Assembly: GCA_029210775.1 (NCBI GenBank) | Contig: JARGGI010000003.1 | Coordinates: forward strand, 4,512 to 68,511 | Source of the DNA: Patescibacteria group bacterium | GTDB taxonomy: Bacteria > Patescibacteriota > Minisyncoccia > JAHIHE01 > JAGLIN01 | Direction of reading: 5' to 3' | Length of the DNA stretch: 64,000 nucleotides | Shown: positions 595 to 52,009 of the stretch, piece by piece | Position numbering within the stretch: position 1 is the stretch's first letter | Layout of the letters: each line of letters begins with the position of its first letter | Notes under the pieces: model-generated | Database searches by the model: none | What the model saw: the letters and a program-made list of their open reading frames with translations, nothing else | What the model was told of the DNA's origin: nothing | Program-made: the position numbers and the translations under genes

Positions 595-2088
595 TTATCT
601 CAACTTTTCAAAATATGTTGGGATTTTTTTATTATAAAATAGTAATATAAAAACCAAAACCCCATAATAAATTATCATAGTCCAAATACTCACTCTTTCA
701 AAGCTTAGATAACCAAAATCAAAACTAGCGAAAAATTTTACAACCTCAATTTGAAAGGTTAAAACGAGCCAGATGGGGAAAGATAGAATCTGCGCAATAA
801 ATAAATTCGCCGAGCCAATTACCATAACCAAAAAACCTCCAAGCATAACGGTCGGCACAAACGGTAAGACCACAATATTAGCGAAGACTGAAAGTATAGA
901 AAAACTACCAAAACTATTTAATATAATCGGCAAGGTCGCAATCTGTGCTGAAATGGTTATCAAAAAAATTGCTTTGATATTTAAGAAATTTGAATATTTT
1001 TCAAAAATAATATCTAATTTTGGAAATATATAAACAATACCAAGTACTGCCAAAAATGAAAGTTGAAAACCAGTATCAAATCTCAAGAGATTTGGATCAT
1101 ACAAAAGCATCAAAACACCAGCAAAAATTATAGCATTCCCAGCATTAGAAAGTCGCCCCACCTTAACAGCCAATAAAACCAATCCCCCCATCACAGATGC
1201 TCGCACTGCAGATGCTGGAAACCCAACAAGCGCAACAAAAAAAACAATTCCCAAAATTGCAAAATAAAAGGCATGGCTTCTCCTTAATCCAATTGCAAGT
1301 AATAGATACATAAAAATAACCGCTACAATCGTCATATGAAGGCCTGAAATGGCTATAATGTGCCTTGTGCCAGTTCTATTAAAGCTTTCTAATGTTTCAG
1401 AGCTTATATCTGATTTTAGCCCTAATGTCATCGCACTTACAATTCCAGCTTGTGGTTGGGGAAATATTTTTTTAATAATATTATTTGAAAATTTTCGAAA
1501 TTTAGAAATTTGAAAATATAAATCCTTTTCGTTCGTATTGATAACTTTTATCTTCGGATAGTATATAACAAAATATATCCCCCTTGAAAAAAGATAGTTT
1601 TTATATTCAAATCCATCAAAATCCTCAGGAATTTGTAATTTTCCATTAATCTCTATTTCATCTAACAAATTATACTCGGGATATTTATCAACATAAAGAA
1701 TAACTTTTCCATTAATATCTTTTTTACTACCAATAATTTCTATGTTTTTAAGTATTAATTTTTGTTTTCCATTTTTAATTTCTGGCATTTCAGAGATCAC
1801 TCCTCGTACTAACATTTCTTGATTATTCAAATTTTCAATCTCCAAATTTTCAATCTCATTTAATTTTTCGCTTTCAATTCTTAATAAACCAAATATAAAA
1901 AGAATTATTATTAAAAATAGTATTATTACTTTTTCCTTTTTCCAAAACAAAAAAATAAGTGAGATACAAAAACCCACAATCAATAATAAAATCCAAATTG
2001 AAGTAGAATAATAAGAACCAAAAAAGATTCCACAAATAAACGCAACACAAAACAATAAAAAATATTTTGACTTAGACATCAATTTCAA
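595..2088 (-). CDS. comEC: ComEC/Rec2 competence protein (DUF4131 plus competence domain, no MBL domain in this ORF)
   Basis: Polytopic membrane protein; contains the HIIAISGLHMTIVA competence-domain motif; the MBL portion is encoded by the next gene downstream (1..185). Confidence 0.8.
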   Translation of the reverse strand: MKLMSKSKYFLLFCVAFICGIFFGSYYSTSIWILLLIVGFCISLIFLFWKKEKVIILFLIIILFIFGLLRIESEKLNEIENLEIENLNNQEMLVRGVISEMPEIKNGKQKLILKNIEIIGSKKDINGKVILYVDKYPEYNLLDEIEINGKLQIPEDFDGFEYKNYLFSRGIYFVIYYPKIKVINTNEKDLYFQISKFRKFSNNIIKKIFPQPQAGIVSAMTLGLKSDISSETLESFNRTGTRHIIAISGLHMTIVAVIFMYLLLAIGLRRSHAFYFAILGIVFFVALVGFPASAVRASVMGGLVLLAVKVGRLSNAGNAIIFAGVLMLLYDPNLLRFDTGFQLSFLAVLGIVYIFPKLDIIFEKYSNFLNIKAIFLITISAQIATLPIILNSFGSFSILSVFANIVVLPFVPTVMLGGFLVMVIGSANLFIAQILSFPIWLVLTFQIEVVKFFASFDFGYLSFERVSIWTMIIYYGVLVFILLFYNKKIPTYFEKLR

Positions 2089-2347
2089 TTACTTTTTGTT
2101 TGCTTTTTCCCCCTTTAATTATATTTATTTTACTCTTACTAATTCCTAATTCTTTTGATAATAACTTAATTAATTCTTTATTCGCCTTACCATCAACCGG
2201 AACAGCAATCAAATATATTTTTAATTCCGGTAAATCTTCAAAATTATTACTTATCTTTTTAAAACCGAGATCCAATTGCGTCAATTTATCAACTCCTAAA
2301 ATCTCATTTCTTGAGGATCTTGTAATTACTTTGCATTTAAATTTCAT
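2072..2347 (-). CDS. DUF167/YggU-family small protein
   Basis: 91 aa; the GKANKELIKLLSKELGISKSKINIIKGGKSKQK pattern is typical of UPF0235/YggU. Confidence 0.6.
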   Translation of the reverse strand: MKFKCKVITRSSRNEILGVDKLTQLDLGFKKISNNFEDLPELKIYLIAVPVDGKANKELIKLLSKELGISKSKINIIKGGKSKQKVIEIDV

Positions 2348-2356
2348 ATATTTTTA

Positions 2357-3085
2357 TTATTCCGATATAACAACATTTTTACAATGTTGTCTTATTTTTT
2401 CTGCCATTATTTCAAGTGTTTCAGTTGAATATGAATTTAGTTTTTCTAATCCAACAGCAAGTGTTTTTTCTGGTCTAAAATTTTGGACGGAATAACGATA
2501 TAATTTTGAGAATATTTTTTTATCAATACTATTTATCCAATTAATTATGCCATCTATGTCTTCTTCATTTACATATCCTGGAACAATTGTCGTCCGAAGT
2601 TCAAGTTCGCTTTTGCTATTAGATATTGATTTTATGCTATTTTCAATATTTCCAATAAGATTATCTTTGTCTTTTTTTGTCATAATCTTATATTTTTTAG
2701 GAACAGTTTTTATGTCAATCGCCCAATAATCAACTAATCCACTATCAATTAAACTTGAAACTGCGTAAAAATATGATCCATTTGTATCAATTTTAACCAA
2801 AAATCCCATTTTTTTTATTTTTTCAATAAATTCCCTTAACCCAAGTTGCAAAGTCGGCTCTCCTCCAGTTATGCAAACTCCATCCAAATCCCCTTTTCTT
2901 GACTTTAAAAATTTCAAAATTTCTTCTTCCTTTATTTCAGAATCATAGTCAATTAATTTTGGATCAACAATGTCAGAATTATGACAAAATGGACAACGAA
3001 AGTTACAACCCATTGTAAAAACGGTTGTAGCTATCTTTCCAGGATAATCAAGCATTGTAAATTTTTGAAACCCTCCAATAAACAT
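2357..3085 (-). CDS. nrdG: anaerobic ribonucleoside-triphosphate reductase activating protein (radical SAM)
   Basis: GCNFRCPFCHN is a CxxxCxxC cluster near the N-terminus; size and position downstream of nrdD are consistent. Confidence 0.8.
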   Translation of the reverse strand: MFIGGFQKFTMLDYPGKIATTVFTMGCNFRCPFCHNSDIVDPKLIDYDSEIKEEEILKFLKSRKGDLDGVCITGGEPTLQLGLREFIEKIKKMGFLVKIDTNGSYFYAVSSLIDSGLVDYWAIDIKTVPKKYKIMTKKDKDNLIGNIENSIKSISNSKSELELRTTIVPGYVNEEDIDGIINWINSIDKKIFSKLYRYSVQNFRPEKTLAVGLEKLNSYSTETLEIMAEKIRQHCKNVVISE

Positions 3086-3280
3086 ATTTTAATTTAACAC
3101 AACTTAATAATTAACTTCTCTATTTAAATTACAAGATTCTATTATTTCTCTCAAGAAAGATGTTTTGTAATTCAAAGTATAATTATATTAAAAATAAAAA
3201 ATTACAAGCTGGAAGACTATTTGCAATTTAATTTATTGTAATTTGATTTTTATAAAAGCATAATATTTTCATAAATAAAA

Positions 3281-5023
3281 TTATACTTCAACGGTCGCAG
3301 TGATTATGTCGGGATATTTATTAACATCTTTCTTTGCCAGTCTATAAGAAGTTCCCTCTCCTGGAGTTGCTTCAAGATTATAGAGTCCACCAGTTTCTTC
3401 TTGATATTTTACAATTCTGTCTCGCATAAATTCCAAAACCTCTTGAGCAAACTTGTTACCCTTTTTTGTAGTAAGATTAACTTTTTTGCCTTGAAAATTT
3501 AGTAAAGATTCGTTCATTCCAATTATTCCAATTGTTGAAAAATGATTACTCCAATATTCTCCTCGTTGAAGTTTAATATTAGCAAGAAAATGTTTTGAAT
3601 ATGGATATAACCCTTTTTCCGTAAAATTCTCCAATGTCTTTCTTTTTATTTCTAAACTTTCTTTTGCAAGATCCATAACCTTGCTTAGTCTGTTAAAAAA
3701 TTCTTTTTTATTTTTTGCCAAATAACCAATTCTTGGTAAATTAATTGTCACAACTCCAATTGAACCCGTGAGTGGATAAGCTCCAAATAAACCTCCTCCA
3801 CGCTTATAGAGTTCTCTATTATCAAGACGCAAACGACAACACATTGATCTTGCATCTTCTGGTTTCATATCGCTGTTTACATAATTAGCAAAATAAGGAA
3901 TTCCATATTTTGCTGTCATTTCCCATATTGGCTCAAGATTTGGGTCATCCCAATTAAAATCCTTGGTTATATTGTATGTTGGAATTGGAAAGGTAAAAAC
4001 CCTACCAGAAGCATCGCCCTCTAACATAACTTCTGCAAAAGCCTTATTTAAAAGACTAATTTCATTTGAAAAATCTTTATATTGTTCTTTTTGAAGAACA
4101 CCTCCAATAACAACAGCTTCATCTGCAAGAGTTGATGGAACAGTTAAGTCCATCGTAATATTTGTAAAGGGAGTTTGAAAACCAACTCTTGTAGGAACAT
4201 TCATATTAAATACAAATTCCTGAATTGCTTGTTTAATGTCCCTATATGTAAGTTGATCATACTTAATAAATGGAGCAAGTAATGTATCAAAATTTGAAAA
4301 AGCCTGTGCCCCAGCAGCTTCTCCTTGTAATGTATAAAAGAAATTAACAACCTGTCCCAATGCCGATTTAAAATGTTTTGGTGGCTTACTCTCACTTTTT
4401 CCGCTAACGCCACCGAAACCATTTGATATTAAATCTTTTAAATCCCACCCACAACAATAAACAGCCAAAAGTCCTAAATCATGAATGTGAAAATCTCCCT
4501 TATTATAACTATCTCTTATTTCAGGAGGATAAATTTTTTCAATCCAATATTTAGAAGTAACAACATTAGCAATATAATTATTAAGTCCTTGTAATGAATA
4601 GGACATATTGCTATTTTCTTTAACCTGCCAATCAATTTCCTTTAAATAATCATCAACTAAATCGACAGATCTTTTCAAAACATCTTGACTTTCTCGAAGA
4701 AGCCTATGTTGTTCGCGATATATTATATAAGCCTTTGCAGTTTCAATATAATTCTCTCTGATCAAAAAACTTTCAACTATATCCTGCACCTCTTCTACTG
4801 TTGGAATTTCAAGCTTTAATCTACCTCCACCATTTCTAACTATAAATCTTTTATTTATCTCACATTCAACTTTTTTTGCAAGATCAAGTGAATTTCTTTT
4901 TGAACCTTCACCTGTAGCACTAAAAGCTTTGTAAATTGCGCTAACAAGTTTATTTTTTTCAAATTTTACAACCCTGCCATCACGCTTTCTTATTTCCTTT
5001 AATTTTATTTTTTTTAAATCCAT
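3281..5023 (-). CDS. nrdD: anaerobic ribonucleoside-triphosphate reductase, class III, with N-terminal ATP-cone; C-terminally short
   Basis: ATP-cone at the N-terminus (KRDGRVVKFEKNKLVSAIYKA); core motifs FHIHDL, SMCCRLRLD and GVVTINLPRIGYLAK match NrdD. The ORF ends at ...EATPGEGTSYRLAKKD..VEV, where the canonical protein continues into the Zn-ribbon and RVCGY glycyl-radical segment. Confidence 0.8.
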   Translation of the reverse strand: MDLKKIKLKEIRKRDGRVVKFEKNKLVSAIYKAFSATGEGSKRNSLDLAKKVECEINKRFIVRNGGGRLKLEIPTVEEVQDIVESFLIRENYIETAKAYIIYREQHRLLRESQDVLKRSVDLVDDYLKEIDWQVKENSNMSYSLQGLNNYIANVVTSKYWIEKIYPPEIRDSYNKGDFHIHDLGLLAVYCCGWDLKDLISNGFGGVSGKSESKPPKHFKSALGQVVNFFYTLQGEAAGAQAFSNFDTLLAPFIKYDQLTYRDIKQAIQEFVFNMNVPTRVGFQTPFTNITMDLTVPSTLADEAVVIGGVLQKEQYKDFSNEISLLNKAFAEVMLEGDASGRVFTFPIPTYNITKDFNWDDPNLEPIWEMTAKYGIPYFANYVNSDMKPEDARSMCCRLRLDNRELYKRGGGLFGAYPLTGSIGVVTINLPRIGYLAKNKKEFFNRLSKVMDLAKESLEIKRKTLENFTEKGLYPYSKHFLANIKLQRGEYWSNHFSTIGIIGMNESLLNFQGKKVNLTTKKGNKFAQEVLEFMRDRIVKYQEETGGLYNLEATPGEGTSYRLAKKDVNKYPDIITATVEV

Positions 5024-5210
5024 TGCCTTTTTTGTTAGTTTATTTATCTTAAAAAAACAAATTTTATTATTCTATTAACCCAAAACATCTTCATCAAAAA
5101 ACCGCCTTTATCAACTTTTTACAACAATAATAATCTTTTTCCGAAAAGGACAGGTTTTAATTTTATTTTTGTTTTATAAATATCACTTTCGAAATTTTAT
5201 ACTTTTTTTT

Positions 5211-6512
5211 TTAGTTTTTTTTCATTTTTTTTCTTATAAATGCTGGCACATCATATTCATCATCAGAACTTACGGAATTAATTTGAGACGAAAATACATT
5301 TTTCTTAATCTTCTGCTCATCCACATTTCTTTTCAAGTTTTTATTTATAGTTTCAGAAATAGAACTGTTTAAATCTTTTTTTCCGTCCATAAAACCCATT
5401 TCTTCTTCATCTTTTTTAAGCATTTCATCTGATTCTTCTTTGTACACTTCTTTGATTTCTTCTTTGGCTTCTCTTGGTTCTTCTTTAATTTTAATTTCAT
5501 TATTAAAACTTATAATTCTTTCTATATCTTTATTAATATTCTTTCTTCCATTATGCATTCCTTCAAATCCACTTGCAATAACAGTCACTTTTATCTCTCC
5601 TTTATTTAAGCTTTCATCATGTATAGCACCAAAAATAACCTTTGCTTCATCGTCAATGAATTCTGTTATAATTTTTGCAGCATCATTAACTTCCATCATT
5701 GTAAGATCAGCTCCACCACTTATATTAAATAGCACACTTTTTGCACCATCAATTGATAATTCCAAAAGAGGACTATTTATCGCTTTTTTGGCAGCAACAA
5801 CAGCCCGATCTTCTCCTGACGCCTTTCCAATTCCCATGAGAGATGGTCCTGTATTTTGCATAACAGATCTAACATCAGCAAAATCCACATTTATAATTCC
5901 AGGAGTGATTATAAGATCAGAAATCCCTTGAACCCCTTGTCTTAGAATGTCATCAGCAATTTTAAATGATTCTAAAAGCAAAGTTTTTTTATCTATCACT
6001 TGAAGAATTCTATCATTAGGAATTGTTATTATTGTATCCACATGATTTATTAAGTTTTCCAATCCCTCTTCTGCAATTCGCTTTCTTTTGATTCCTTCAA
6101 ATGAAAATGGTTTAGTAACGATTGCAACTGTCAAGGCATTTGCTTCTCTTGCAGCTTCAGCAATAATCGGTGCGGCTCCAGTTCCTGTCCCACCTCCAAG
6201 ACCACAAGTTATAAAAACCATATCAGTATTTTTTAAAACATCTTGAATTTCATCTCTATTCTCCTCAGCTGCTTGCCGTCCTATATCAGGGTTCATTCCT
6301 GCACCAAGACCTCTTGTTAAATTTTTCCCAATATGTATTTTTTCTGCAGCTCTACAATGATGTAAATCCTGAGAATCTGTGTTTATGGCCACAAAATCAA
6401 CTCCATTTAAACCTGCATCAATCATCCTGGTTATTATATGATTTCCACTGCCACCAACCCCAACAACCTTGATTCTGGCAAATGTTTCAAACTCAGGTTT
6501 AATTTCTTTCAT
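5211..6512 (-). CDS. ftsZ: cell division GTPase FtsZ
   Basis: Tubulin signature GGGTGTGAAPIIAEAARE; N-terminal KVVGVGGSGNH; acidic C-terminal tail. Confidence 0.95.
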   Translation of the reverse strand: MKEIKPEFETFARIKVVGVGGSGNHIITRMIDAGLNGVDFVAINTDSQDLHHCRAAEKIHIGKNLTRGLGAGMNPDIGRQAAEENRDEIQDVLKNTDMVFITCGLGGGTGTGAAPIIAEAAREANALTVAIVTKPFSFEGIKRKRIAEEGLENLINHVDTIITIPNDRILQVIDKKTLLLESFKIADDILRQGVQGISDLIITPGIINVDFADVRSVMQNTGPSLMGIGKASGEDRAVVAAKKAINSPLLELSIDGAKSVLFNISGGADLTMMEVNDAAKIITEFIDDEAKVIFGAIHDESLNKGEIKVTVIASGFEGMHNGRKNINKDIERIISFNNEIKIKEEPREAKEEIKEVYKEESDEMLKKDEEEMGFMDGKKDLNSSISETINKNLKRNVDEQKIKKNVFSSQINSVSSDDEYDVPAFIRKKMKKN

Positions 6513-41167: not shown

Positions 41168-41788
41168 TTATATTTTTTTAGAAATAATATAAAACCAGTC
41201 TCTTTTATGGGCAGAGAACTTCTTAATATAAAATGACTTAAAACCACATTTGGTTAAATAAACTAGAATTTCCTTTTTTGTGAATTTATTAAAAACAAAA
41301 TCATCAGGTTCTATATCTCCTTTTTCTTTCTTCATAGCAATAACCCCAAAAACGCCATTTTTCTTTAAGGTTCTTCTAACTTCTTTTAAAGAACTTTCAA
41401 TATCATTGAAAGTTAAATGCGTAAACAAAGAAGAAGAGGCCCAAATTCCATCAAAATAATTACCTTCAAAAATGAGCTGCACCATATTCATTAAATAAAA
41501 TTTACCCTTATTATTTTTATTGGCATAAGCTATCATTTTCTCAGATATATCTATTCCAAAACCATCATAGCCTTTTTCGATAAAATATTTTACATCCCTA
41601 CCAGTTCCACTTCCCATATCTAAAATTTTTCCTTTTTTAGATACACATTCTAAAAACTTATCAAGCTTATCTTGCATAAGTACATCCCCACTTTTTAAAT
41701 AGGAATCTAGATTATTATTATACCAGCTTTTTACTTCTTTATAGACCTGTTTCATAAAAAATCGAGAAGTAACTTTGCTACTTCTCAT
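41168..41788 (-). CDS. class I SAM-dependent methyltransferase
   Basis: Motif I ILDMGSGTGRD; 206 aa; no SD of its own; starts 8 nt after the preceding small ORF. Confidence 0.8.
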   Translation of the reverse strand: MRSSKVTSRFFMKQVYKEVKSWYNNNLDSYLKSGDVLMQDKLDKFLECVSKKGKILDMGSGTGRDVKYFIEKGYDGFGIDISEKMIAYANKNNKGKFYLMNMVQLIFEGNYFDGIWASSSLFTHLTFNDIESSLKEVRRTLKKNGVFGVIAMKKEKGDIEPDDFVFNKFTKKEILVYLTKCGFKSFYIKKFSAHKRDWFYIISKKI

Positions 41789-41953: not shown

Positions 41954-43252
41954 CTACCGGCTTGCTTTCTCAAACATTTTTTTACTATAGAGTACTTTAA
42001 AGAATATTTCTCTATCTTCTTCCGATTTTACTGGCAACTCTAATTCATGCCATTTAAAGGCATTCCCATTCTGGGGTAGTTTAAGAGCAACGTTATATCC
42101 CTCCTCATCAAGAAATACCAATTCATCATTATACAATACCACACCGCCAAATTCCTCAGTTCTAATTTTTACATCACTTTTGAGCCGCAAATATTCCGGC
42201 ACAATAAAATCAAACTGAGAATGATTAACAACGGGTTTTATTAATTCCGGATTAGTCATGAGGGGGTCTTTCCCACGAATGTCGCCATAAAAAAGCTTAG
42301 CATCCATTCTACAGCCTCCAGAACATTGCAGGAGATAAGAACAGGTTTTACATGTTTCGTAGAGAAAAATACCATCACGCCATTCTTGCATCGCTAACCA
42401 GCATTCTCTTAAAGATTTCTCAAACAAATTACCATAGCTCATATCTGCATGGGCACAGGGACGTACTGATCCATCCGGAGAAACGGAACAATTAAATATT
42501 CCTGCGGTACAATTACGACGCGTAAATTGCTGATATTTTTCCATATCCTGAATAAAACAAAGTGGATAAGTTTCTAATATTTCTACCCACATTCCAAAAT
42601 CTATTTGCAGCCGCAGTAAATCGTCCATTGATTGCTTAAATTGCTGAGGCGTTCCACGATAATTCTTATACTCAGTGTTAGGGGAAGGTGCAACCTTAGT
42701 TGCAGAAAAACGCAACAAGCCAAGTTCATGAGCTAATTTTCCAGTTTCATAAACCTGATAAGCATTTTCCTTACGCACAACCATATTTGCGCTTGTTAAT
42801 ACTCCAGCATCTGTAAGCATGCGAATTTTTGGGAGCAAACGCTTATGGAAACCCTTACGTTGTATTATCTTATCATGTACTTCTGGCTGATAAGACAATA
42901 ACGTTGTCAATACTCCAACTCCATGATCACTAAAAAAACGCGTCATTTCTGGAGTAAGCTTTTGTAAATTGCTATTACAATAAACCCCTAGTCCCAATTC
43001 TCTTGCTTTCCCAATACCAGCCTTAAGAGTATCTTTAAACATTAATGGCTCACCACCAGTAAAGCACACTGACATTACCTTCCAGCGAGCAAGTTCTTCT
43101 ACTAATGTTTTAACCTGATTCGGACTCAGATGTTTCGTTTCCTCTTTTTGAATATTTTGACATGCCCGATAACAATGACTACAAACTTGATTGCAATCAT
43201 CAGTTACTTCGATTTGTACCGAAAGTGGCGCACTAAGTGTTCTGTATAACAT
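41954..43252 (-). CDS. radical SAM enzyme with C-terminal SPASM domain (anSME/peptide-maturase type)
   Basis: CNQVCSHC (CxxxCxxC) at aa 20-27; C-terminal auxiliary cluster motifs CTAGIFNCSVSPDGSVRPC and CKTCSYLLQCSGGC. Confidence 0.85.
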   Translation of the reverse strand: MLYRTLSAPLSVQIEVTDDCNQVCSHCYRACQNIQKEETKHLSPNQVKTLVEELARWKVMSVCFTGGEPLMFKDTLKAGIGKARELGLGVYCNSNLQKLTPEMTRFFSDHGVGVLTTLLSYQPEVHDKIIQRKGFHKRLLPKIRMLTDAGVLTSANMVVRKENAYQVYETGKLAHELGLLRFSATKVAPSPNTEYKNYRGTPQQFKQSMDDLLRLQIDFGMWVEILETYPLCFIQDMEKYQQFTRRNCTAGIFNCSVSPDGSVRPCAHADMSYGNLFEKSLRECWLAMQEWRDGIFLYETCKTCSYLLQCSGGCRMDAKLFYGDIRGKDPLMTNPELIKPVVNHSQFDFIVPEYLRLKSDVKIRTEEFGGVVLYNDELVFLDEEGYNVALKLPQNGNAFKWHELELPVKSEEDREIFFKVLYSKKMFEKASR

Positions 43253-43422
43253 TATCTGCCTCTATATTTTAAAAGAACTCATCTGATTAAAAAGTTTCTT
43301 TTTAATCATCCTTCCTTGTAAATAACTTTAACAAATCCAAAGATATTGTCAATACAGAGAGGATTTTTGTTGCGAATTGATAGAATATATTCCCCTATCA
43401 AAAGTTCTAACGTCCCTTTTTG

Positions 43423-43462
43423 GGTATAAAAATAATCCTTTAAACAAAGGATTATTTTTGTT
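43423..43462. terminator. hairpin (AAAATAATCCTTT-aaac-AAAGGATTATTTTT) upstream of copy 2; a homologous hairpin precedes copy 1 at 40806..40838
   Basis: Seen directly in both copies. Confidence 0.45.
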
Positions 43463-43507
43463 GGCTCCGCATCGTGAACGATGTTAGAACCATTTTTTTA
43501 AATTTAA

Positions 43508-43675
43508 ATGAGAATGCTTTTATCCCAGACCTCTCCGCACAGAGGCAGATTTAGTTTATTGATTGTCATATTGCTCGCTTGGCGGGACAGCTTTCGAACC
43601 TTTGATTGGGTAAAAGCGTTGCCTGTACCAGAGTTAGTGATTCGGCAAATTGGGCAATTATTAGAGCTTGCGTAA
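43508..43675 (+). CDS. small ORF (55 aa; MRMLLSQTSPHRGRFSLLIVILLAWRDSFRTFDWVKALPVPELVIRQIGQLLELA), copy 2 of a paralog pair; candidate precursor peptide
   Basis: ATG start; C-terminal 30 aa conserved with copy 1 through mainly synonymous substitutions; aromatic/Lys motif FRTFDWVK; a partial third copy of the 5' region lies at 43696..43760. Confidence 0.45.
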   Translation: MRMLLSQTSPHRGRFSLLIVILLAWRDSFRTFDWVKALPVPELVIRQIGQLLELA

Positions 43676-43894
43676 AAATATAATAAATATTCTATTCACA
43701 CGGTGGCAGATTTAGTTTATTTAATATTTTCAGTGCTCCGCTTTTCTTATCATTATTAACAATCTAACAGAAAGAGGTCGTTTGTCAATATGCTATTATG
43801 CAATGCTATTATGCAAGTTAATTTCTTTGTTATTATTCCCTCAATCAATAACCTCTCTCGGACTTACGCCGTTGCCAGGGCTGGTGATTTATAA

Positions 43895-44575
43895 TTAATT
43901 TCTATATTTTTGAATTCTACCTTCTTTAGAAACCCACATATCGCCAAATCCATAAAGTTTTCCTGATTCTGATAATTCAACCCATGATCCTTTTTCACCA
44001 ATAGCAACAAACTGCGTTTTAGATTCTAGCCTTAAATTCTTAAACGCATTAAAGGCAACTTCTGCGGTTTTCTCTTGAGAGTGGACAAGACACCCCAAAT
44101 CGATAATACCCCAACCTTTCTTCCATATTGCTCTATTGTCTTCAATGTCTGTATACCAAGCAGCGAGCGCCTGAACACCAGCGCTTATCCCGACAATAAC
44201 AATGCCTTTTTTTATTGCACGTTTTAATACCGGTAATAATTGCCAACGATCAAACAAAGATAGAAGATATTCTGTTTTTCCTCCTCCAAAATAAATTACT
44301 GAAGATTCCATTATGGCTACTTCAGCTGCTTCTTTGCCTTCTAATTCAACAACCGCTCGGAAATTAAAATCATTTTCAAAAATTTTCCGCATCGAATTAA
44401 TATAATCAATACTGTCTTTCGCAGCAGTTGGGAAAAAAATAAAATTAGCTCTATCTTTTTGTAAAGCAAATTTTTTTATTGCTATATCGACTGATTTTGT
44501 TTCGCCTTTTTTTATTTCACCTCCGCCTATGAGAAAAATTTTATTTTGCATAATAATATATTTAATTGAAAACAA
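43895..44575 (-). CDS. peptidase S51 / cyanophycinase-dipeptidase E family (type-1 glutamine amidotransferase-like fold)
   Basis: GGG...FFPTA..., YFGGGKTEYLL and the nucleophile elbow GISAGV; start at 44575 (TTG) or 44551 (ATG). Confidence 0.7.
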   Translation of the reverse strand: MFSIKYIIMQNKIFLIGGGEIKKGETKSVDIAIKKFALQKDRANFIFFPTAAKDSIDYINSMRKIFENDFNFRAVVELEGKEAAEVAIMESSVIYFGGGKTEYLLSLFDRWQLLPVLKRAIKKGIVIVGISAGVQALAAWYTDIEDNRAIWKKGWGIIDLGCLVHSQEKTAEVAFNAFKNLRLESKTQFVAIGEKGSWVELSESGKLYGFGDMWVSKEGRIQKYRN

Positions 44576-44633: not shown

Positions 44634-45869
44634 TTAATTACCAATTTGGCTTTTACTTTCATACAGAAGATTTTTTATTTCTAACAATTCTGATATACCT
44701 CCAATTAGCGTTATGCCTGTTTTACGTACTTTGATATCAAGCTTTCCTGTTGTGGTTTTATTTGCCAAAACAACTCGCATTGGTATTCCTAAAAGATCGG
44801 CATCTATCAAAGAACGCCCTATTGATTGATCTCTTAAGTCTAATAATACAGTACAGCCTAATATTTCTAGATTTTTGGTTAATTTCTTCGCTTCTTCGGC
44901 TCGTTCCTGATTAGCTATCAAGTGTATATCAAACGGCGCTATTTCTATGGGCCAAACCAACCCATGTTCGTCGTGATAATACTCGGCGAGTATTTGCATC
45001 AATCGACTTAAACCAATACCCCCGACGGCAGTCTGAATCGGCTTATTACTACCTATCGACAACGCATTCATTTTCCCGGTAATAATAGTGCCATGACGCA
45101 CTATATCTCCGAGCTCCACAGCCGGTACGTTTTCCATTAAATGGCCGCAATTAGGACAAACATCCATTATTTGTTTACCAAACCTATAAGAATTGATGCA
45201 TGCTGTACATGTATGCACAAAACACTGTTTGGTGGCGGAAGGAACCCAAAAAGAATCAGCTGGAGATTCTAACGGTGCGAAATAATACGACGCTTTCTTG
45301 TAAGGCAAACCTAACCAGCCCAAGAAAGACCGCATTACTTCATCCATCCGATGCATTTCCTCGCTTAATTCGATTTCATTCCGCGCCAATATATACATAT
45401 CGCCCATTACAAACGATCTGCTGCGGATAAAACCATGACTAGGTTGCAATTCATTGCGTATGCGTTCTCCAATCTGGAAATAGCGAAGAGGCATATCCTT
45501 GTCTTTGAAATCCGACTGGCAAAATAAATTTACCATTGATTCTTCCTGAGTGGGATTTATAACATATCTTTTCCCGTCTTTAAGAGTAGTTTCACAGAAC
45601 AATCCGGCAAAACGTTCAGCACGTCCCGATTTCTCCCATAAAAACATTTCTTGAAGGCTAGGTAAAAACATTTCCCAAAATCCTTGCTCACGACAAAACC
45701 TCCTAAATGCTCCTGAAATTTTTTCAAGAACCAATACGGCAGGGGGTAAAAGTGCAATACATCCCGACGATATTTTTTTTGCATACCCAGCAGATTCAAG
45801 CCAAATTAAGCCATCAGCGTCATTCCGTTGTGGCAGTTTCGTTCTAAAAAGTCCCGATGAATAAAGCAT
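44634..45869 (-). CDS. bacterial-type prolyl-tRNA synthetase homolog lacking the INS editing domain, which is replaced by a CxxC...CxxC zinc ribbon
   Basis: Colinear with ProRS: motif 1 region LPPAVLVLEKI, motif 2 FQIGERIRNE...RSRSFVMGDMY, motif 3 GGIGLSRLMQIL, then an anticodon-binding domain (LVWPIEIAPFDIHLI); a CTAC...CPNC insert sits where INS would be; higher GC than the host genes. Confidence 0.75.
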   Translation of the reverse strand: MLYSSGLFRTKLPQRNDADGLIWLESAGYAKKISSGCIALLPPAVLVLEKISGAFRRFCREQGFWEMFLPSLQEMFLWEKSGRAERFAGLFCETTLKDGKRYVINPTQEESMVNLFCQSDFKDKDMPLRYFQIGERIRNELQPSHGFIRSRSFVMGDMYILARNEIELSEEMHRMDEVMRSFLGWLGLPYKKASYYFAPLESPADSFWVPSATKQCFVHTCTACINSYRFGKQIMDVCPNCGHLMENVPAVELGDIVRHGTIITGKMNALSIGSNKPIQTAVGGIGLSRLMQILAEYYHDEHGLVWPIEIAPFDIHLIANQERAEEAKKLTKNLEILGCTVLLDLRDQSIGRSLIDADLLGIPMRVVLANKTTTGKLDIKVRKTGITLIGGISELLEIKNLLYESKSQIGN

Positions 45870-46015: not shown

Positions 46016-47311
46016 TTATTCACCGAAAATTTTGGCATTCATCGCAATTTCTTTGAGTATTGTCTGCATAAACCTACATTTTTGCCTATCTATCTCCTTG
46101 CCGGAGATAATCTGGAATGCCGGACAAGGACCGCCGCAAATATGACGTGCTTCGCATTTACTACACTGGCTGATTCTCTTAATAGGAATATTCATTTTCC
46201 CCTTGAAATTAGTCAGAAGGACATCATTCCAATTTTGAGAGCAAAAAGACAAGTGCCCCTCAGTGCTAATCGAAGCCATTATATACCCATTATTAAACAT
46301 ACAAGGACAGTGGCGCTTAATATTATTTGCTAAAGAAAAAAGTATCGGCGACGCTGCGGAGTCTATTGTAACTTTATTTTTCCTAGCAATACGTACAAGC
46401 TTCACTAATATTTGTGCATATTTTTCTCCATCAATATTCCATGCCAAAGACCGATAATGAAATGGTGTGTTTATCGTTATCGTTTTAGAAGGAAATGTTT
46501 TTAATGTGCCACGAAAAATTTTCGGCAATTGATCCAAAAAACCGGCATGCGGAGTTATAAGAACATGCGTATCTATTCCCGCTTTTATTAAACGATAGTA
46601 ATTATGTTTTGTGTCCTTAAAACTGCCACGCCCGTTTTTATAAATCCTGAATTTATTGTTAATATTTTCTGGCCCATCTATAGAAACTCCAATTTTAAAA
46701 TCATTCTTCTTAAAAAACCTTATCATATTATCATTAAGAAATGTAAGGTTGGTTGTCATTGTATAAAACGGCTTAATCATCTTCCTTGTTTTGACAGCTT
46801 CATTAACCATGTCTACTGTCCGTTTGATATGATCAAACCTAATCAATGGCTCACCCCCAAAAAAATGATACGTAATTTTTTCTGATGTTCCGTAAGAAAT
46901 TGTTTTCTTAATTACAGTCTCAAGTGTAGCATGAGACATTGTTTTTAAATTATTACGATTCTTCGTAACAAAACATTCGGGGCATTTTAAATTACACTCC
47001 TCAGTAAGAGCAATTCTAAAAGCACGGATATCTGGGTTTAAATTGAAAACTTTCGGATAAGGTATAGATTTCGATCGACTAAAAAAACCAAGCTCGTCAA
47101 GTTCTTTAAGCACACGCCATGCCTCCTTTTGTTTAGAAAGTGGCATGGAAATTATTACCTTTTTTGGATCTCTGGCAATTTTAAAAGCGTTTAATATGAC
47201 AAGATGAGAAGAACCGACTTCCGCATAATTCAGTGTCTCTTCATCAAAAATAGTGATCTTCCCTCTTGATCCGGAATAAACCCGAAAAGGATGAGCTGAT
47301 ATTTTTTTCAT
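46016..47311 (-). CDS. radical SAM/SPASM enzyme with a ~110-aa N-terminal extension (RRE/PqqD-like position) before the CxxxCxxC cluster
   Basis: CNLKCPEC at aa ~115; C-terminal SPASM motif CSKCEARHICGGPC; start trimmed to MKKISAHPFRV so that it begins 4 nt after the stop of the upstream rSAM (the track ORF 46016..47410 includes an in-frame overlap). Confidence 0.8.
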   Translation of the reverse strand: MKKISAHPFRVYSGSRGKITIFDEETLNYAEVGSSHLVILNAFKIARDPKKVIISMPLSKQKEAWRVLKELDELGFFSRSKSIPYPKVFNLNPDIRAFRIALTEECNLKCPECFVTKNRNNLKTMSHATLETVIKKTISYGTSEKITYHFFGGEPLIRFDHIKRTVDMVNEAVKTRKMIKPFYTMTTNLTFLNDNMIRFFKKNDFKIGVSIDGPENINNKFRIYKNGRGSFKDTKHNYYRLIKAGIDTHVLITPHAGFLDQLPKIFRGTLKTFPSKTITINTPFHYRSLAWNIDGEKYAQILVKLVRIARKNKVTIDSAASPILFSLANNIKRHCPCMFNNGYIMASISTEGHLSFCSQNWNDVLLTNFKGKMNIPIKRISQCSKCEARHICGGPCPAFQIISGKEIDRQKCRFMQTILKEIAMNAKIFGE

Positions 47312-47315
47312 ATAA

Positions 47316-48239
47316 TTATTTCCAAAATCTAGGATTATCAAAAAGCGAAACGCAATGAACACCGAAACAATTAGGTAGTTTTTCACTTTTCGATAATATA
47401 TTATTATCAATATTAGCTATTATCTCAGAAACCGGATCATTGAATAGATTACCCAGTTTTATATCTGGCCGATGGAAACACGGCGTCAAATCACCTTCGG
47501 CGCTACAAACAAAATACTCCTTACCCATACAACAGAGGGCGTTCGGTAATAGATTCTTGTTATTAAAAATCGCTTCCGTAAGCGCTATATAATCCTTTAT
47601 ATGCGTTGATTTATTTTTTTGCGAAATTTTTTTTATGGCATTAAAAATAATATTGTCTTTATTCTCTGTATTTAATTGCTGCATTTTTCCTTTTGGAATA
47701 AAGACTTCTTGAAATCGAATATCCGAAATACCAAGACCTTGAAGCCAATTAATAGTTTCATCTAATGTGGAAGCATTTTTCTTTGTTACTACCGTCGTCG
47801 TCGCCACATTTCGATAGCCACGCGAAATCAATCCCTTAATAGCATATACGGTGTCATCAAATCTACCACGTTGTTTATTGTGTACTTCTCTTATATGAGA
47901 ATCTATGGAAATATCAATCCTGTCCACATTGAGCCTTATTATCGTATCCAAATCGGCATCAGTAAGAAAAGTTGCACTGGTGTTTATTATTACCGGAATT
48001 TTTTTCTTTTTTATTTCACGAATAATAATATATGTTTCTTGCTTTAATTTTAAATGCAAAGGTTCGCCACCGGTTAAAATAACTTTATCAAAATTAAGCG
48101 CTTCTATTTTATCAGCAAAAATCTCAGCTTTATCTGGACTAATTTTTGAGGCTACTCGTTTTTGATATCCAGTCGCATAAAAACAATAGGCGCAACTAAT
48201 ATTACATAAATTATTTACCATCAAAAATAAACAGCGCAT
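47316..48239 (-). CDS. radical SAM enzyme with a short twitch/SPASM-like C-terminal Cys cluster
   Basis: CNISCAYC at aa 12-19; C-terminal CCMGKEYFVCSAEGDLTPC...CFGVHC. Confidence 0.8.
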   Translation of the reverse strand: MRCLFLMVNNLCNISCAYCFYATGYQKRVASKISPDKAEIFADKIEALNFDKVILTGGEPLHLKLKQETYIIIREIKKKKIPVIINTSATFLTDADLDTIIRLNVDRIDISIDSHIREVHNKQRGRFDDTVYAIKGLISRGYRNVATTTVVTKKNASTLDETINWLQGLGISDIRFQEVFIPKGKMQQLNTENKDNIIFNAIKKISQKNKSTHIKDYIALTEAIFNNKNLLPNALCCMGKEYFVCSAEGDLTPCFHRPDIKLGNLFNDPVSEIIANIDNNILSKSEKLPNCFGVHCVSLFDNPRFWK

Positions 48240-48589
48240 ATTTATTATATTTATACAGTAAAAAATACATTGTCAGACAAAATATGTTAATTAAGGATAC
48301 TTAATTATAAAAATTCCCCTTGCAATCAAAAAAACAAGAGGAATTTTAAAATGTGATATAGTAATTCTCTCTTAACCAGATTGACATGATGTCCTTGCTT
48401 TCTGTGTAGCTATATTAACTTTTTTTGCTTTTTTTTGTGATTTCATAGTAATAATATTCCTTTTATAATCATCAAATTAACCCTTAAATATTTCGACTTT
48501 TAATTTTTATAATAAAAACGGACACTGACCTTTAATCAAATATAGTATATTTCTCCTTATCTGTCAATGGCTCGTGCCTACATTCTGCT

Positions 48590-49663
48590 CCGAAGTGCAA
48601 CATCATAAAGGACATCCAAAGCCTGGTATAATAGTTAAGTCTTCACTTAATTATTAACCAACAAATAGATGCCCTACAAACATATTACACCAGATCAGAG
48701 AAATGAGCTATCTGCCCTTAAAAGAACTAAAATAAGACAGGAAGAAATCGCTCAATTATTGGGAAAAAACAGAACGACAATTTACAGGGAAATTATAAGA
48801 AACAAAAATAAGAATGGAAAATACGATGCCAGAATCGCCAAACAAAAAACCAAAAAAAGAAGAATAAAAGCCAACCAAAGATTCAGAAAAATAGAAAATA
48901 ACAGATGGTTGAGAACATATCTAATTAAAAAAATAAAAGTATTGGTCGCCAGAACAGATTGCGGGAAGAATAAAAAGGAAATGGCCAGAAGACAAATCAA
49001 AACATATCGGCAAAGACAGCATCTATGATTTCATATATACTGAAAGAAAAGATCTGGTAAAATATCTCCGATGCCAGAAGGGAAAATATCGCAGAAGGTA
49101 TGGCACGAGAATTAGAGAAAAACAGCGAGAGGAAGCTAAAAAGAAGAGGATTGATACAAGGCCTGAAATTGTTAAAACGAGAGAAAGAATCGGCGATTGG
49201 GAAGGAGATACTATTGTCGGCAAAGAAAAAACAATTCATATTTTGACTCATGTGGAAAGAAAAAGCGGAATGCTGTTTGCGGATAAGTTGGAAAAAGCGA
49301 CAGCGGAATTAACTAGAGAAAAAACTATTAAGAGATTTGAAAAAATACCAAGAAAGAAAAAATACACGCTCACTTATGATAATGGAACAACCTTTGCTAG
49401 CCATCAAGATACTGAAAGAAAGATAAAAATAGGCATTTATTTTGCTTTTCCTTATCATTCTTGGGAAAGAGGATGCAACGAAAACGCTAATGGGCTTCTC
49501 AGGCAATTCTTTCCCAAAAAATCATCATTCGCAAATATTAATCAAAAAGATATTGACAAAGCCTATCGGCTCATTAATAATAGACCAAGAAAGAGGCTTA
49601 ACTATCTAACTCCTTACGAAGTGTTCTATGAGAAATAATTTCTTAAAAAATGTTGCACTTTGG
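48590..49663 (+). mobile_element. IS30-family insertion sequence (~1.07 kb) with terminal inverted repeats CCGAAGTGCAACAT / ATGTTGCACTTTGG
   Basis: IRL at 48590-48603 and IRR at 49650-49663 (13 of 14 matching); a transposase lies between them. Confidence 0.7.
48669..49638 (+). pseudogene. IS30-family transposase interrupted by a single +1 frameshift in an A7 run (~48925-48935)
   Basis: ORF1 is the HTH N-terminus (MPYKHITPDQRNELSALKRTKIRQEEIAQLLGKNRTTIYREIIRN); the +1 frame continues YWSPEQIAGRIKRKWPEDKSKHIGKDSIYDFIYTERKD...DWEGDTIVGKEKTIHILTHVERKSGMLFADKL...DNGTTFASHQD...NNRPRKRLNYLTPYEVFYEK (DDE core) with no further stops. Confidence 0.8.
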
Positions 49664-49828: not shown

Positions 49829-50149
49829 TCACATATCCCATGCTTTTTTATAATCTGGGAACTCATTGGTTTTCTTAATCTCTCTGTCCGGATCTTTTTG
49901 TTTGAAATATTTCAAAAAGATATGCTCAAGAAAGGCATGCACTAGAATATGAATGCGAACATTGAATGATTCGTTTTTATATTTATTCTCAAAATATTTC
50001 CACGATTTCGCTGCTTGTTTTAAGTTTCCGTCTTGAATAAACAACTGATGAATCAGCTCATGAATTAAGTTATCGATAAAACGATCTGGCTCTTCGTAGG
50101 CTCGTAATGTTAAAGGATCAGAGAATGGTACGCAGTTTCCTACCAACAA
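49829..50149 (-). CDS. HExxH-containing fragment (NLIHELIHQLF); possible ImmA/IrrE (DUF955)-like metallopeptidase remnant
   Basis: Motif only; TTG start; N-terminal region apparently missing. Confidence 0.3.
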   Translation of the reverse strand: MLVGNCVPFSDPLTLRAYEEPDRFIDNLIHELIHQLFIQDGNLKQAAKSWKYFENKYKNESFNVRIHILVHAFLEHIFLKYFKQKDPDREIKKTNEFPDYKKAWDM

Positions 50150-50384
50150 CCTAAGCCGATTGTTGATTGGAATAAATGGCTAATGTTAGCTATAAATCGT
50201 TGTTTTGTTGCTAAAATATCATGCAGTTATATAGACCTATTTATGTCGACTTTTGCTCTGGAAAAAATCCCGAAATTGGGACAATACTGCTCTGAAATTG
50301 TAACGAATTAACTACAAATTAATCTTACCAGATAATAACGGATATGTCAACGCTCGCTCGCTCAGTCTTGTCTGATATAAGATG

Positions 50385-50456
50385 CTCCGCGAGAGGGATT
50401 CGAACCCCCGACCAATTGGTTAACAGCCAACTGCTCTACCACTGAGCTATCGCGGA
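50385..50456 (-). tRNA. tRNA-Asn (anticodon GTT)
   Basis: Minus-strand TCCGCGATAGCTCAGTGGTAGAGCAGTTGGCTGTTAACCAATTGGTCGGGGGTTCGAATCCCTCTCGCGGAG; canonical cloverleaf, anticodon loop CTGTTAA; its 3' end faces the island. Confidence 0.85.
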
Positions 50457-50578: not shown

Positions 50579-52009
50579 TTAATAATCAAGCAATCTTTTT
50601 GATTCTCTATGCTTTCTAATTTTTTCAAGTGCTTTTGCTTCAATCTGCCTAATTCTTTCTCTTGTCACACCAAATTCCTGTCCAATTTCCTCCAAAGTAT
50701 GAGTCACTCCATCTTCAAGTCCAAAACGTAATTTCAAAATTTTCTGTTCTCTTGGAGAAAGTTCAACTAAAATTTCTTTCACATACCCCTTAAGTAGCTG
50801 TCTTCCTGCAGATTGAGATGGAAGAACTGCATCAGTGTCTTCTATAAAATCACGAAGAGTACTGTCGTCATCATCTTCACCGACAGAAGTCTCAAGTGAA
50901 ACCGTATCTTGAGATATTTTCATAATATGTCTAACTTTTTCAACTTCAATATTCATTTCAGATGCAATTTCCTCTGGTAATGGTTCTCTTCCTAAATCCT
51001 GAACAAGACGCCTTGTTACCTGAGAAAACTTATTTATTGTTTCAACCATATGAACTGGAATTCTAATCGTGCGAGATTGATCTGCTATTGCTCTCGTAAT
51101 CGCTTGACGAATCCACCATGTTGCATATGTTGAAAATTTATATCCCTTTCTATAATCAAATTTTTCAACAGCTCTGAATAGTCCAATATTTCCTTCTTGA
51201 ATTAAATCCAATAAACTCAAATTTGCACTTCTTCCAACATATTTTTTTGCAATACTTACAACCAAACGAAGGTTTGCTTCAGAAAGCATCTGCTTAGCGG
51301 CCACATCACCCTTTTCTTTTCTTTTTGATAAAGAGACTTCTTCTTCCCCAGTCAAAAGAGACACTCTTCCAATCTCACGCAGATACATTTGAACAGAATC
51401 GCTGGAAATATTATCAAGAGACAATTCTCTTATTTCTTTTTCTACTTCTTTCTTGGTTTTTTTACTAACATCTTCTTTGGCATCAGAAACATCAATTATA
51501 TCAACATTGCTTACTACCTTTATATTTTCTTGTTCAAATTTGTCATATAGCAATTCAAGTTGACCAATATCATTTTCAATATCAGGAATTATTTTTATAA
51601 TCTCTTCTTCGGTTACAAAACCTTTCGATTTTCCCCTACTCATTAATTCTTCAATTTGATTATTAATGTTTTCATTTTCAACATCCTGCTTCTTTAAGTC
51701 TTTCTTTTTCAATTTTCCTGGCTTTATGCTCTTCCCTTTTTGCTTTCTTTTAAGTTTTGAAGATTTTCTCGCAATTGATTTTTTTGCTATTTTCTCTTTT
51801 TTCGCTTTTGCTTTTGCTTTTACAACAGTTTTAACTGTTTTCTTTTTCGGAGTTACTTTTTTCACTGTTTTCTTTTTTTTTGCTTTTGCTGTTACAACAG
51901 TTTTAGCTTCTTTCTTTTTCGGAGTTACTTTTTTCATTGTTTTCTTTTTCATCAATTTTGATTTTATCAATTTAATTGTTTTTTTATTTTTTATTTTTTT
52001 TGTTTTCAT
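50579..52009 (-). CDS. rpoD: RNA polymerase sigma-70 factor RpoD with a Lys/Ala/Thr-rich tandem-repeat N-terminus (histone H1-like)
   Basis: Regions 2-4 are conserved ([27 protein letters not shown]; 4.2 [23 protein letters not shown]); N-terminal [18 protein letters not shown] repeated twice (a ~63-nt tandem repeat near 51820-51960). Confidence 0.9.

Follow-up and report, generated by a model that had tools for sequence, protein, structure and literature searches.

A probable RiPP-type peptide-maturation operon pairing radical SAM enzymes with a diverged prolyl-tRNA synthetase paralogue in Patescibacteria

Maturases of peptides made by the ribosome and modified post-translationally (RiPPs) that bear a RiPP recognition element (RRE) and a SPASM domain are well known. 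In the thioether maturases of the CteB/SCIFF and PapB systems, an N-terminal RRE, a radical S-adenosylmethionine (SAM) core and a seven-Cys SPASM domain follow one another in this order, and the precursor carries Cys in its core; TigE (a cyclopropylglycine synthase), SuiB and ChlB are other RRE-bearing SPASM maturases. The anaerobic sulfatase-maturating enzymes (anSMEs) share the SPASM fold without an RRE and act on a single Cys or Ser within a short motif, C/S-x-P/A-x-R, and the mycofactocin and PQQ pathways combine a short precursor bearing a conserved C-terminal core with an RRE, a SPASM radical SAM enzyme and a dedicated peptidase, without an exporter. Here, two adjacent radical SAM genes, rSAM-A and rSAM-B, were analysed in a 64,000-nucleotide stretch of a Patescibacteria group bacterium (assembly GCA_029210775.1, contig JARGGI010000003.1, positions 4,512 to 68,511 of the forward strand; referred to as the window). 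They belong to a conserved module of a small peptide gene, rSAM-A, rSAM-B, a diverged paralogue of prolyl-tRNA synthetase (ProRS) and an S51 peptidase, which is probably a RiPP-type peptide-maturation operon of an uncharacterised family found almost only in Patescibacteria, the candidate phyla radiation (CPR). The set of peptide, radical SAM pair and aminoacyl-tRNA synthetase (aaRS)-like genes is a combination without earlier description; full-text literature searches found no description of such a system, and there was no curated NCBIfam model for the enzymes or the peptide. Unless assigned to another locus, coordinates are those of the window, in which the module lies on the minus strand (Table 1), and labels such as L001, L002, L003, L004, L085, L086 and L087 denote the orthologous loci examined.

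The CxxxCxxC cluster of rSAM-B (C106-x3-C110-x2-C113, all three Cys invariant in 64 sequences) is preceded by 105 residues, in agreement with the original prediction, which had put this region at about 110 residues and proposed that it holds a PqqD-like precursor-recognition domain. Pfam Radical_SAM (PF04055, gathering threshold 29.5 bits) matched both enzymes above its threshold, with 73.7 bits for rSAM-A and 48.9 bits for rSAM-B. The AlphaFold2 model of rSAM-B, based on 64 sequences (predicted local distance difference test (pLDDT) 94.8, predicted template modelling score 0.92), places strands at residues 9-13, 19-23 and 28-32, followed by helices at 34-42, 49-54 and 58-73. This predicted topology, a three-stranded antiparallel sheet and then three helices in a winged helix-turn-helix (wHTH) within about 80-100 residues, is that of an RRE, and it was recovered when the N-terminal domain was modelled alone (pLDDT 89.7). 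The nearest structural neighbours of the domain were known RREs and not generic wHTH proteins. The region was present in 51 of 51 aligned rSAM-B orthologues (31-77% identity), among which strand beta3 (FNEETLxLTEL) and helix alpha3 (ELIELGL) were the best-kept stretches. Two outcomes named beforehand as contradicting the proposal, a fold other than that of an RRE (for example a B12-binding domain) and loss of the region from orthologues, were both looked for and neither was seen. The modelled fold thus supports the N-terminal region of rSAM-B as an RRE, although the Pfam and profile check of the same proposal failed; divergent RREs commonly escape Pfam (PMC7470986), and the assignment rests on structure comparison because sequence profiles miss PqqD.

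In its C-terminal part, rSAM-B has the seven-Cys SPASM arrangement (Cx9-15Gx4C, Cx2Cx5Cx3C and a final C), a pattern that corresponds to two auxiliary [4Fe-4S] clusters, at positions that are invariant or nearly so in 51 orthologues; the Pfam SPASM hidden Markov model (HMM) gave no reported hit for rSAM-B. CteB was the best PDB match both by sequence (E 4.5e-18) and by fold (E 3e-20), and CteB, TigE, anSME, ChlB and SuiB were nearest to the full-length enzyme in fold and sequence. The top NCBIfam matches were peptide maturases and anSME, all far under their cut-offs (score/cut-off: PapB 113/340, SCIFF 81/425, RumMC 82/720, CcpM 103/500, anSME 114/349). For rSAM-A, the nearest solved relatives were the SkfB and CteB cores and BtrN, seven Cys were conserved in 22 orthologues (C12, C16 and C19, with C236, C254, C291 and C296), and every NCBIfam score was likewise under its cut-off. 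Since all NCBIfam matches of the two enzymes are several-fold below the curated cut-offs, rSAM-A and rSAM-B are placed outside any named family.

Comparison with the described systems leads to the same placement. With respect to CteB/SCIFF and PapB, rSAM-B scores 3-5 fold below the cut-offs and so falls outside these families by score, the precursor has one Cys, is 18-37 aa long and extremely basic, the cross-link here is an inferred one, and the set additionally includes a second radical SAM enzyme without an RRE, the ProRS paralogue and the S51 hydrolase. TigE, SuiB and ChlB share 13-15% identity here, and the core sequence is unrelated, with no Val-rich repeat and no Lys-Trp motif as for SuiB, the streptide maturase. 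Although anSME is the second-best NCBIfam match of rSAM-B (114 bits), rSAM-B is not considered an anSME because it carries an RRE, the C/S-x-P/A-x-R motif is absent from the peptide and its score lies below the cut-off of 349; there is also no sulfatase nearby. In contrast to mycofactocin and PQQ, where MftB or PqqD is separate, the RRE is fused here, the MftC and PqqE models score low, the peptidase is of the S51 family in place of the creatininase-like MftE or the PqqF/G proteases, and there are no downstream tailoring oxidoreductases.

A peptide substrate had been predicted for the pair, and a conserved small open reading frame (ORF) adjoining the two genes bears this out. In the window the peptide gene is situated between the radical SAM pair and an IS30-like gene, and a homologous small ORF was found beside the radical SAM genes in all 20 distinct orthologous loci with a readable flank, upstream of rSAM-A except in two lineages in which it follows rSAM-B (MKKIVFKAKCARTSCQSN). 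Homologues include MKTAEVTPSPKKHKKARRIRLAAQKPRTSCQSG (Uhrbacteria) and MKKTRRIKIAVVKPRTSCASG (Nanosyncoccus), and further ...GKPKARRIRLAAQPPRSSCHST, MSKKSKKQRIRRIKLIVRTPRSACQSG and MKKRARRIKIVAVKPHTSCLSG. The last 18 residues of the 20 distinct peptides aligned without gaps: Cys at position -4 and Ser at -2 were invariant, position -5 was nearly always Ser or Ala, position -7 was basic and the C-terminal residue was variable, giving the consensus (K/R)(K/R)(I/V)x(L/I)-x5-(R/H/K)(T/S/A)(S/A)-C-x-S-x-stop with the basic-hydrophobic motif at a fixed distance. In a GC-rich locus the sequence RTSCQSG is written with different codons from those of the window at 6 of 7 positions, indicating that selection acts on the peptide. 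An NCBIfam scan of six peptide variants returned nothing. This layout, a leader with a recognition motif followed by a short core, is the anatomy of a RiPP precursor.

The two radical SAM genes had been described as one operon on the basis of a 4-nt spacing and the absence of a Shine-Dalgarno (SD) sequence before the second gene. The spacing, coordinates and frames proved correct (rSAM-A TAA at 47318..47316, then TTAT, then the rSAM-B ATG at 47311..47309), whereas the SD argument has no discriminating power here: an AGGA, GGAG or GAGG core at -20 to -4 was found in just 2 of the 42 long ORFs of the window, and rSAM-A itself has none, so that its absence before rSAM-B is uninformative. The operon claim stands on other grounds. 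Across eight orthologous loci the rSAM-A/rSAM-B junction measured -4 to +5 nt, with a 4-nt ATGA overlap in five (L001, L002, L003, L086 and a JGI 180-kb contig) and a gap of 2-5 nt in three (L004, L085 and L087), and this conservation gives better support to an operon with translational coupling. The pair is far from chance, its gene order and its neighbours recurring in more than 25 loci of several CPR lineages. The two window ORFs with an SD core are the ProRS-like gene and that of a third radical SAM enzyme, rSAM-C, and the 24-aa peptide gene likewise has one; these SD-using genes fall within a GC-richer block of a host genome that is otherwise almost without SD cores.

Two candidate signals flank the peptide gene. 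The promoter-like site was the top score of the scan, with 11 of 12 matches, but this is a consensus match only and the count of such sites in the region did not exceed the shuffle expectation. The hairpin (minimum free energy -16 kcal/mol, z -2.35), a candidate attenuator or partial terminator, has comparable or stronger counterparts in the corresponding position of L002, L004 and L087 (z -2.4 to -4.3), and was thus seen in all four loci folded. The operon layout is one making more precursor than enzyme.

Table 1. Positions of the module genes, their domains, candidate signals and neighbouring genes in the window
Feature	Position	Strand	Description	Pfam
Class I SAM-dependent methyltransferase	41168..41788	-	206 aa; downstream of rSAM-C	
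rSAM-C	41954..43252	-	432 aa radical SAM/SPASM; nearest to NirJ2, AhbD, GeoRSP and mycofactocin maturases, below all cut-offs	
Peptidase S51 family hydrolase	43895..44575	-	likely start ATG at 44551	Peptidase_S51, 77 bits
ProRS-like class II aaRS paralogue	44634..45869	-	411 aa; catalytic core and anticodon-binding domain, without INS editing domain	tRNA-synt_2b, HGTP_anticodon
rSAM-B	46016..47311	-	431 aa; predicted RRE, radical SAM core and full SPASM domain	Radical_SAM
SPASM seven-Cys motif of rSAM-B	46076..46303	-	C337-x14-G352-x4-C357 ... C383-x2-C386-x5-C392-x3-C396 ... C412	
Predicted RRE (PqqD-like winged-helix) domain of rSAM-B	47027..47311	-	residues 1-95	
rSAM-A	47316..48239	-	307 aa radical SAM, without RRE; short C-terminal 4-Cys auxiliary-cluster region	Radical_SAM, SPASM
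14-bp stem-loop then U-run	48310..48347	-	between peptide stop and rSAM-A start; candidate attenuator or partial terminator	
Precursor or scaffold peptide gene	48372..48446	-	24 aa, MKSQKKAKKVNIATQKARTSCQSG; AAGGA core upstream	
Promoter-like site TTGACA-17-TATATT	48539..48567	-	~90 nt upstream of peptide gene	
IS30-like transposase	48669..49638	+	split over two frames (119 aa and 131 aa ORFs); directly upstream of peptide-gene promoter	

The ProRS-like gene lies directly 3′ of rSAM-B in at least 20 loci, and it and the S51 gene accompany the radical SAM pair in nearly all loci; the S51 gene is present in most, either 5′ of the peptide gene or 3′ of the ProRS-like gene. The paralogue forms a separate clade of ~36 clusters with scores of 292-890 bits, true ProRS reaching at most 168 bits, and is under all ProRS cut-offs (NCBIfam score/cut-off 207/558, 183/307 and 165/550). 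With canonical bacterial ProRS as the reference, it keeps 51 of 147 canonical-invariant columns, compared with 85 in the short ProRS of CPR, and shows the clade-specific replacements H108Q, E206S, H255D, R185W and N229R. The ATP-binding motifs 2 and 3 are kept, with R138, E140, R149, F153, G284, G286 and R289 invariant within the clade. Judged by curated score and canonical residues, the paralogue is therefore not recognised as a functional ProRS, whereas its class II motifs and anticodon-binding domain are in place. Its CxxC...CxxC knuckle was considered as a novel insertion and rejected, the canonical bacterial ProRS compared having the same four Cys flanking INS. A dedicated tRNA, following the logic of pyrrolysine, is also unsupported, as scanning the window and 11 loci for tRNAs revealed no conserved gene of this kind close to the module. 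On a Nomurabacteria contig (L169, 5362..11419), a pair of canonical ProRS and ProRS-like genes occurs without the peptide, rSAM-A or rSAM-B; after it come a 61-aa ORF, a GFO_IDH-like protein of 478 aa and another radical SAM/SPASM enzyme, of 449 aa, with an RRE-like N-terminus of its own. The S51 hydrolase is weakly similar to cyanophycinase and PepE, and its triad positions, Ser131-His165-Glu194, are conserved in 14 orthologues.

From these features the following course of maturation may be proposed. The basic (K/R)(K/R)IxL segment of the peptide would dock on the RRE of rSAM-B as an additional beta strand next to beta3/alpha3, the most conserved parts of the domain, and this would bring the C-terminal core into the active site at a set distance. 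The single invariant Cys would then be the residue on or from which rSAM-B acts. A thioether cross-link with a residue close by is the most likely reaction, favoured because CteB, PapB, CcpM and SCIFF are nearest to rSAM-B and its distant homologues; the alternative is that the Cys is oxidised to formylglycine. rSAM-A, presumably made in fixed proportion through the coupled junction, would probably be recruited by rSAM-B to carry out a second radical reaction on this core. The S51 hydrolase, or a lineage-specific S66 peptidase or HIT hydrolase, could trim, release or detoxify the product, and the ProRS paralogue, in which the ATP motifs are kept and the amino-acid pocket is remodelled, may shield the producer's prolyl-tRNA charging from the product or load an amino acid onto the peptide.

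Several results count against a RiPP-type maturation operon. Foldseek E-values for the 96-residue N-terminal domain were weak in absolute terms (1e-3 to 0.2), PqqD (Pfam PF05402) gave no match at E <= 10 among 35 N-terminal domains, and a profile HMM of the region searched against PDB sequences gave just non-significant wHTH matches. In NCBIfam, rSAM-B scores about equally for thioether maturases, anSME, and cyclophane and ether formers. The binding register of the peptide on the RRE is inferred, and the 7-residue core contains one Cys; sacti- and ranthipeptides normally have several, so that a single Cys is unusual. The conserved set includes neither an exporter nor a classical leader protease, which is atypical for secreted RiPPs. 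Lastly, one locus (L088) has the peptide and radical SAM pair without the ProRS paralogue, and in L169 the paralogue adjoins a canonical ProRS with no such pair nearby; the ProRS paralogue may thus not be an obligatory part of the pathway.

How the aaRS-like genes relate to the peptide can be read in more than one way. It is possible, if tentative, that the modified peptide or a fragment of it is an antimetabolite against ProRS (alanyl-tRNA synthetase (AlaRS) in Moranbacteria), to which the aaRS paralogues, the co-transcribed canonical ProRS and the S51, MccF-like S66 and HIT hydrolases confer immunity, following the logic of microcin C and other aaRS-inhibitor clusters. The regular position of an aaRS paralogue directly after rSAM-B is consistent with this, as are the genes next to it. 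In at least 12 loci the paralogue is succeeded by a canonical archaeal-type ProRS, which in L086, L170 and the JGI contig is separated from it by 1 nt or overlaps it, and L086 has three ProRS-family genes, two canonical copies and the paralogue. (In GC-rich loci, a 326-aa gene called on the minus strand within the canonical ProRS was rejected as an antisense artefact.) The Moranbacteria loci (L010 4937..7613; L087 9908..12621; L094 2167..4832) have no ProRS-like gene and instead carry, convergent to rSAM-B and beside a canonical 433-aa AlaRS N-terminal half, a 389-aa paralogue of the AlaRS catalytic domain with degenerate alanine-binding motifs (65-85% identity among the three loci). An S66 peptidase follows the canonical ProRS in L085 (13290..14237) and also in L006, L007, L008 and L090, and in L088, which has neither an S51 nor a ProRS-like gene, it stands directly after rSAM-B (4963..5904). 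Its E-values (3e-103 to B. anthracis BA_5613, 1e-37 to MccF and 1e-24 to LdcA) mark it as MccF-like rather than LdcA-like, and it stands very near to such proteins from Bacillus anthracis and Listeria. The MccF orthologue of B. anthracis cleaves peptidyl-adenylates by hydrolysis and gives microcin C resistance (PMC8323819). In L168 (2005..9962), and likewise in L107, the peptide and radical SAM pair are surrounded by two ProRS-like genes, three S51 genes, an HD-domain protein and a HIT hydrolase; the HIT gene of L168 lies between S51 genes with 4-nt overlaps. MccF and HIT enzymes (MccH) are known to confer immunity to aminoacyl-adenylate mimics of the microcin C type (PMC8323819), and translation-quality-control genes mark such clusters elsewhere (PMC13149037).

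However, ~60% of the canonical-invariant positions, pocket residues included, are gone from the ProRS paralogue and the alanine-binding motifs of the AlaRS paralogue are degenerate, which is more change than would be expected of a resistant but functional synthetase. There is no exporter or uptake-related feature, genes of the S66 and HIT families are confined to particular lineages here and are common in housekeeping roles, and CPR bacteria with genomes of roughly 1 Mb are not known as antibiotic producers of this type. No nucleotidyl-transferase of the MccB (ThiF/E1-like adenylyltransferase) type was found in the window or, by Pfam tables, in the orthologous loci examined, and for this reason the module is not a microcin C system; moreover, maturation here falls to radical SAM enzymes, the peptide ends in a variable residue and not in Asn, and mcc clusters are not known to use an aaRS paralogue for immunity. 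The more specific proposal that a radical-SAM-modified basic peptide targets ProRS as the radical SAM counterpart of Trojan-horse aaRS inhibitors, with the aaRS paralogues and hydrolases being self-protective, is accordingly put forward as a doubtful one.

It is unlikely that the ProRS-like enzyme is instead a biosynthetic ligase that transfers an amino acid from its aminoacyl-adenylate to the Cys thiol or Ser hydroxyl of the peptide, the radical SAM enzymes then tailoring the tethered residue and the S51 hydrolase releasing a small product, with the peptide recycled as a scaffold. The comparison is with PoxA/EpmA acting on elongation factor P (EF-P), amino acid:carrier-protein ligases acting on thiols, and the PEARL/3-thiaglutamate and LysW carrier pathways; in PoxA/EpmA with the radical SAM enzyme EpmB, as in the window, one operon combines a class II aaRS paralogue, its ATP motifs intact, with one or more radical SAM enzymes. 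Retention of motifs 2 and 3 and the PTxEE loop together with exchange of pocket invariants for clade-invariant residues fits neofunctionalisation, the invariant Cys and Ser stand out in an otherwise tolerant core with a variable C-terminal residue, and a swap to the AlaRS-like paralogue could alter the amino acid loaded. Relatives of the S51 hydrolase (PepE and cyanophycinase) are of exopeptidase type and release small units, and the absence of an exporter is in keeping with this scheme. Unlike in PoxA/EpmA, though, the anticodon-binding domain is kept here, and as the best-conserved part of the paralogue it argues for continued tRNA binding; the radical SAM enzymes are SPASM peptide maturases and not aminomutases, and neither EF-P nor a carrier protein takes part. 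Residues required for alanine binding are missing from the AlaRS paralogue, L088 has the peptide and radical SAM pair with no aaRS paralogue, acylation of a RiPP precursor by an aaRS paralogue has no known precedent, and ordinary modification of a core peptide fully explains the RRE-SPASM architecture.

Although the best NCBIfam matches of rSAM-A include MoaA, NirJ2, AhbD and a tungsten cofactor maturase, rSAM-B matches anSME, and short ProRS without the INS domain occur in other CPR genomes, it is very improbable that the radical SAM enzymes serve cofactor or protein maturation (anSME- or MoaA/NirJ/AhbD-like) unrelated to the small ORF and that the ProRS-like gene is the organism's ProRS, given that those matches are 3-8 fold below family cut-offs, the RRE fold is specific to peptide-recognising maturases, every lineage keeps the small ORF beside the pair, conserved at the protein level, the family is rare and its distribution patchy, the window block is GC-richer, SD-using and beside an IS30-like element, and many loci have a canonical ProRS beside the paralogue.

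Close full-length relatives of rSAM-B formed ~66 clusters at 90% identity (31-77% identity to rSAM-B) among 5.8 billion entries, almost all from CPR, and the named ones were from Uhrbacteria, Moranbacteria and Peregrinibacteria; one protein identical to rSAM-B is recorded for the metagenome-assembled genome of a Patescibacteria group bacterium. An orthologue was present in ~10 of 185,579 species representatives, including a Nanosyncoccus (Saccharibacteria), and with so few carriers the module is best described as a rare, patchy accessory trait of CPR. Distant relatives at 33% identity, in the order B then A, were found in a Halothermothrix metagenome-assembled genome (MAG) and another Patescibacteria MAG (L013 5306..14519; L014 7599..9899; L100 about 1400..3746). 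The Halothermothrix locus contains three genes like rSAM-B, a single one like rSAM-A and an MFS transporter, and in L014 and L100 an upstream ORF (...KKILLSHACMQSGGLAEGPRNPKPVKSK) has an internal C-x-S-G motif; the enzymes of L013 and L014 are also nearest to the PapB, CcpM and SCIFF maturases.

In the window, the block at 42-48 kb has a GC content of 0.33-0.42, compared with about 0.27-0.31 in the flanks, and this, together with the adjoining insertion sequence element, suggests that the block is a horizontally acquired island. The IS30-like transposase is probably frameshifted or decayed. rSAM-C and the methyltransferase downstream of it were considered as module members and rejected, as neither is found beside the module in L004, the closest relative, or at any other locus; a search for methyltransferase orthologues near the module in other loci found none at E < 1e-6. 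rSAM-C has a C-terminal extension of ~100 residues (IRTEEFGGVVLYNDELVFLDEEGYNV...) that looks PqqD-like by eye, and its gene is preceded by an ORF-poor gap of 640 bp (43253..43894). Between the IS30-like element and a tRNA-Asn gene (50384..50456) lies a 106-aa ORF (49829..50149, minus strand) with a HELIH motif of the HExxH type, which may be the remnant of a metallopeptidase-like gene, and further on an RpoD-like sigma factor (50579..52009, minus strand) has a repetitive N-terminal extension of ~100 residues rich in Lys, Ala and Thr.

An RRE on a SPASM maturase is in itself ordinary; what is new is the system to which the pair belongs, an unnamed RiPP-like family largely in Patescibacteria (Uhrbacteria, Moranbacteria, Saccharibacteria/Nanosyncoccus and Peregrinibacteria) with a defined precursor motif, ...RRIxL-x5-R-T-S-C-Q-S-G, and a putative enzyme-substrate pair small enough for direct reconstitution in E. 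coli. It also presents a recurrent, unexplained genetic link with aaRS paralogues and with hydrolases acting on aminoacyl-adenylate analogues. If the doubtful proposal that ProRS is the target were true, this would be the first aaRS-directed RiPP made by radical SAM chemistry, and could serve the ultra-small CPR episymbionts as a weapon or control device on hosts or competitors. The genomes of CPR bacteria are tiny and their way of life is obligately episymbiotic, and a conserved accessory peptide system linked with prolyl-tRNA charging could matter for the interaction between them and their hosts.

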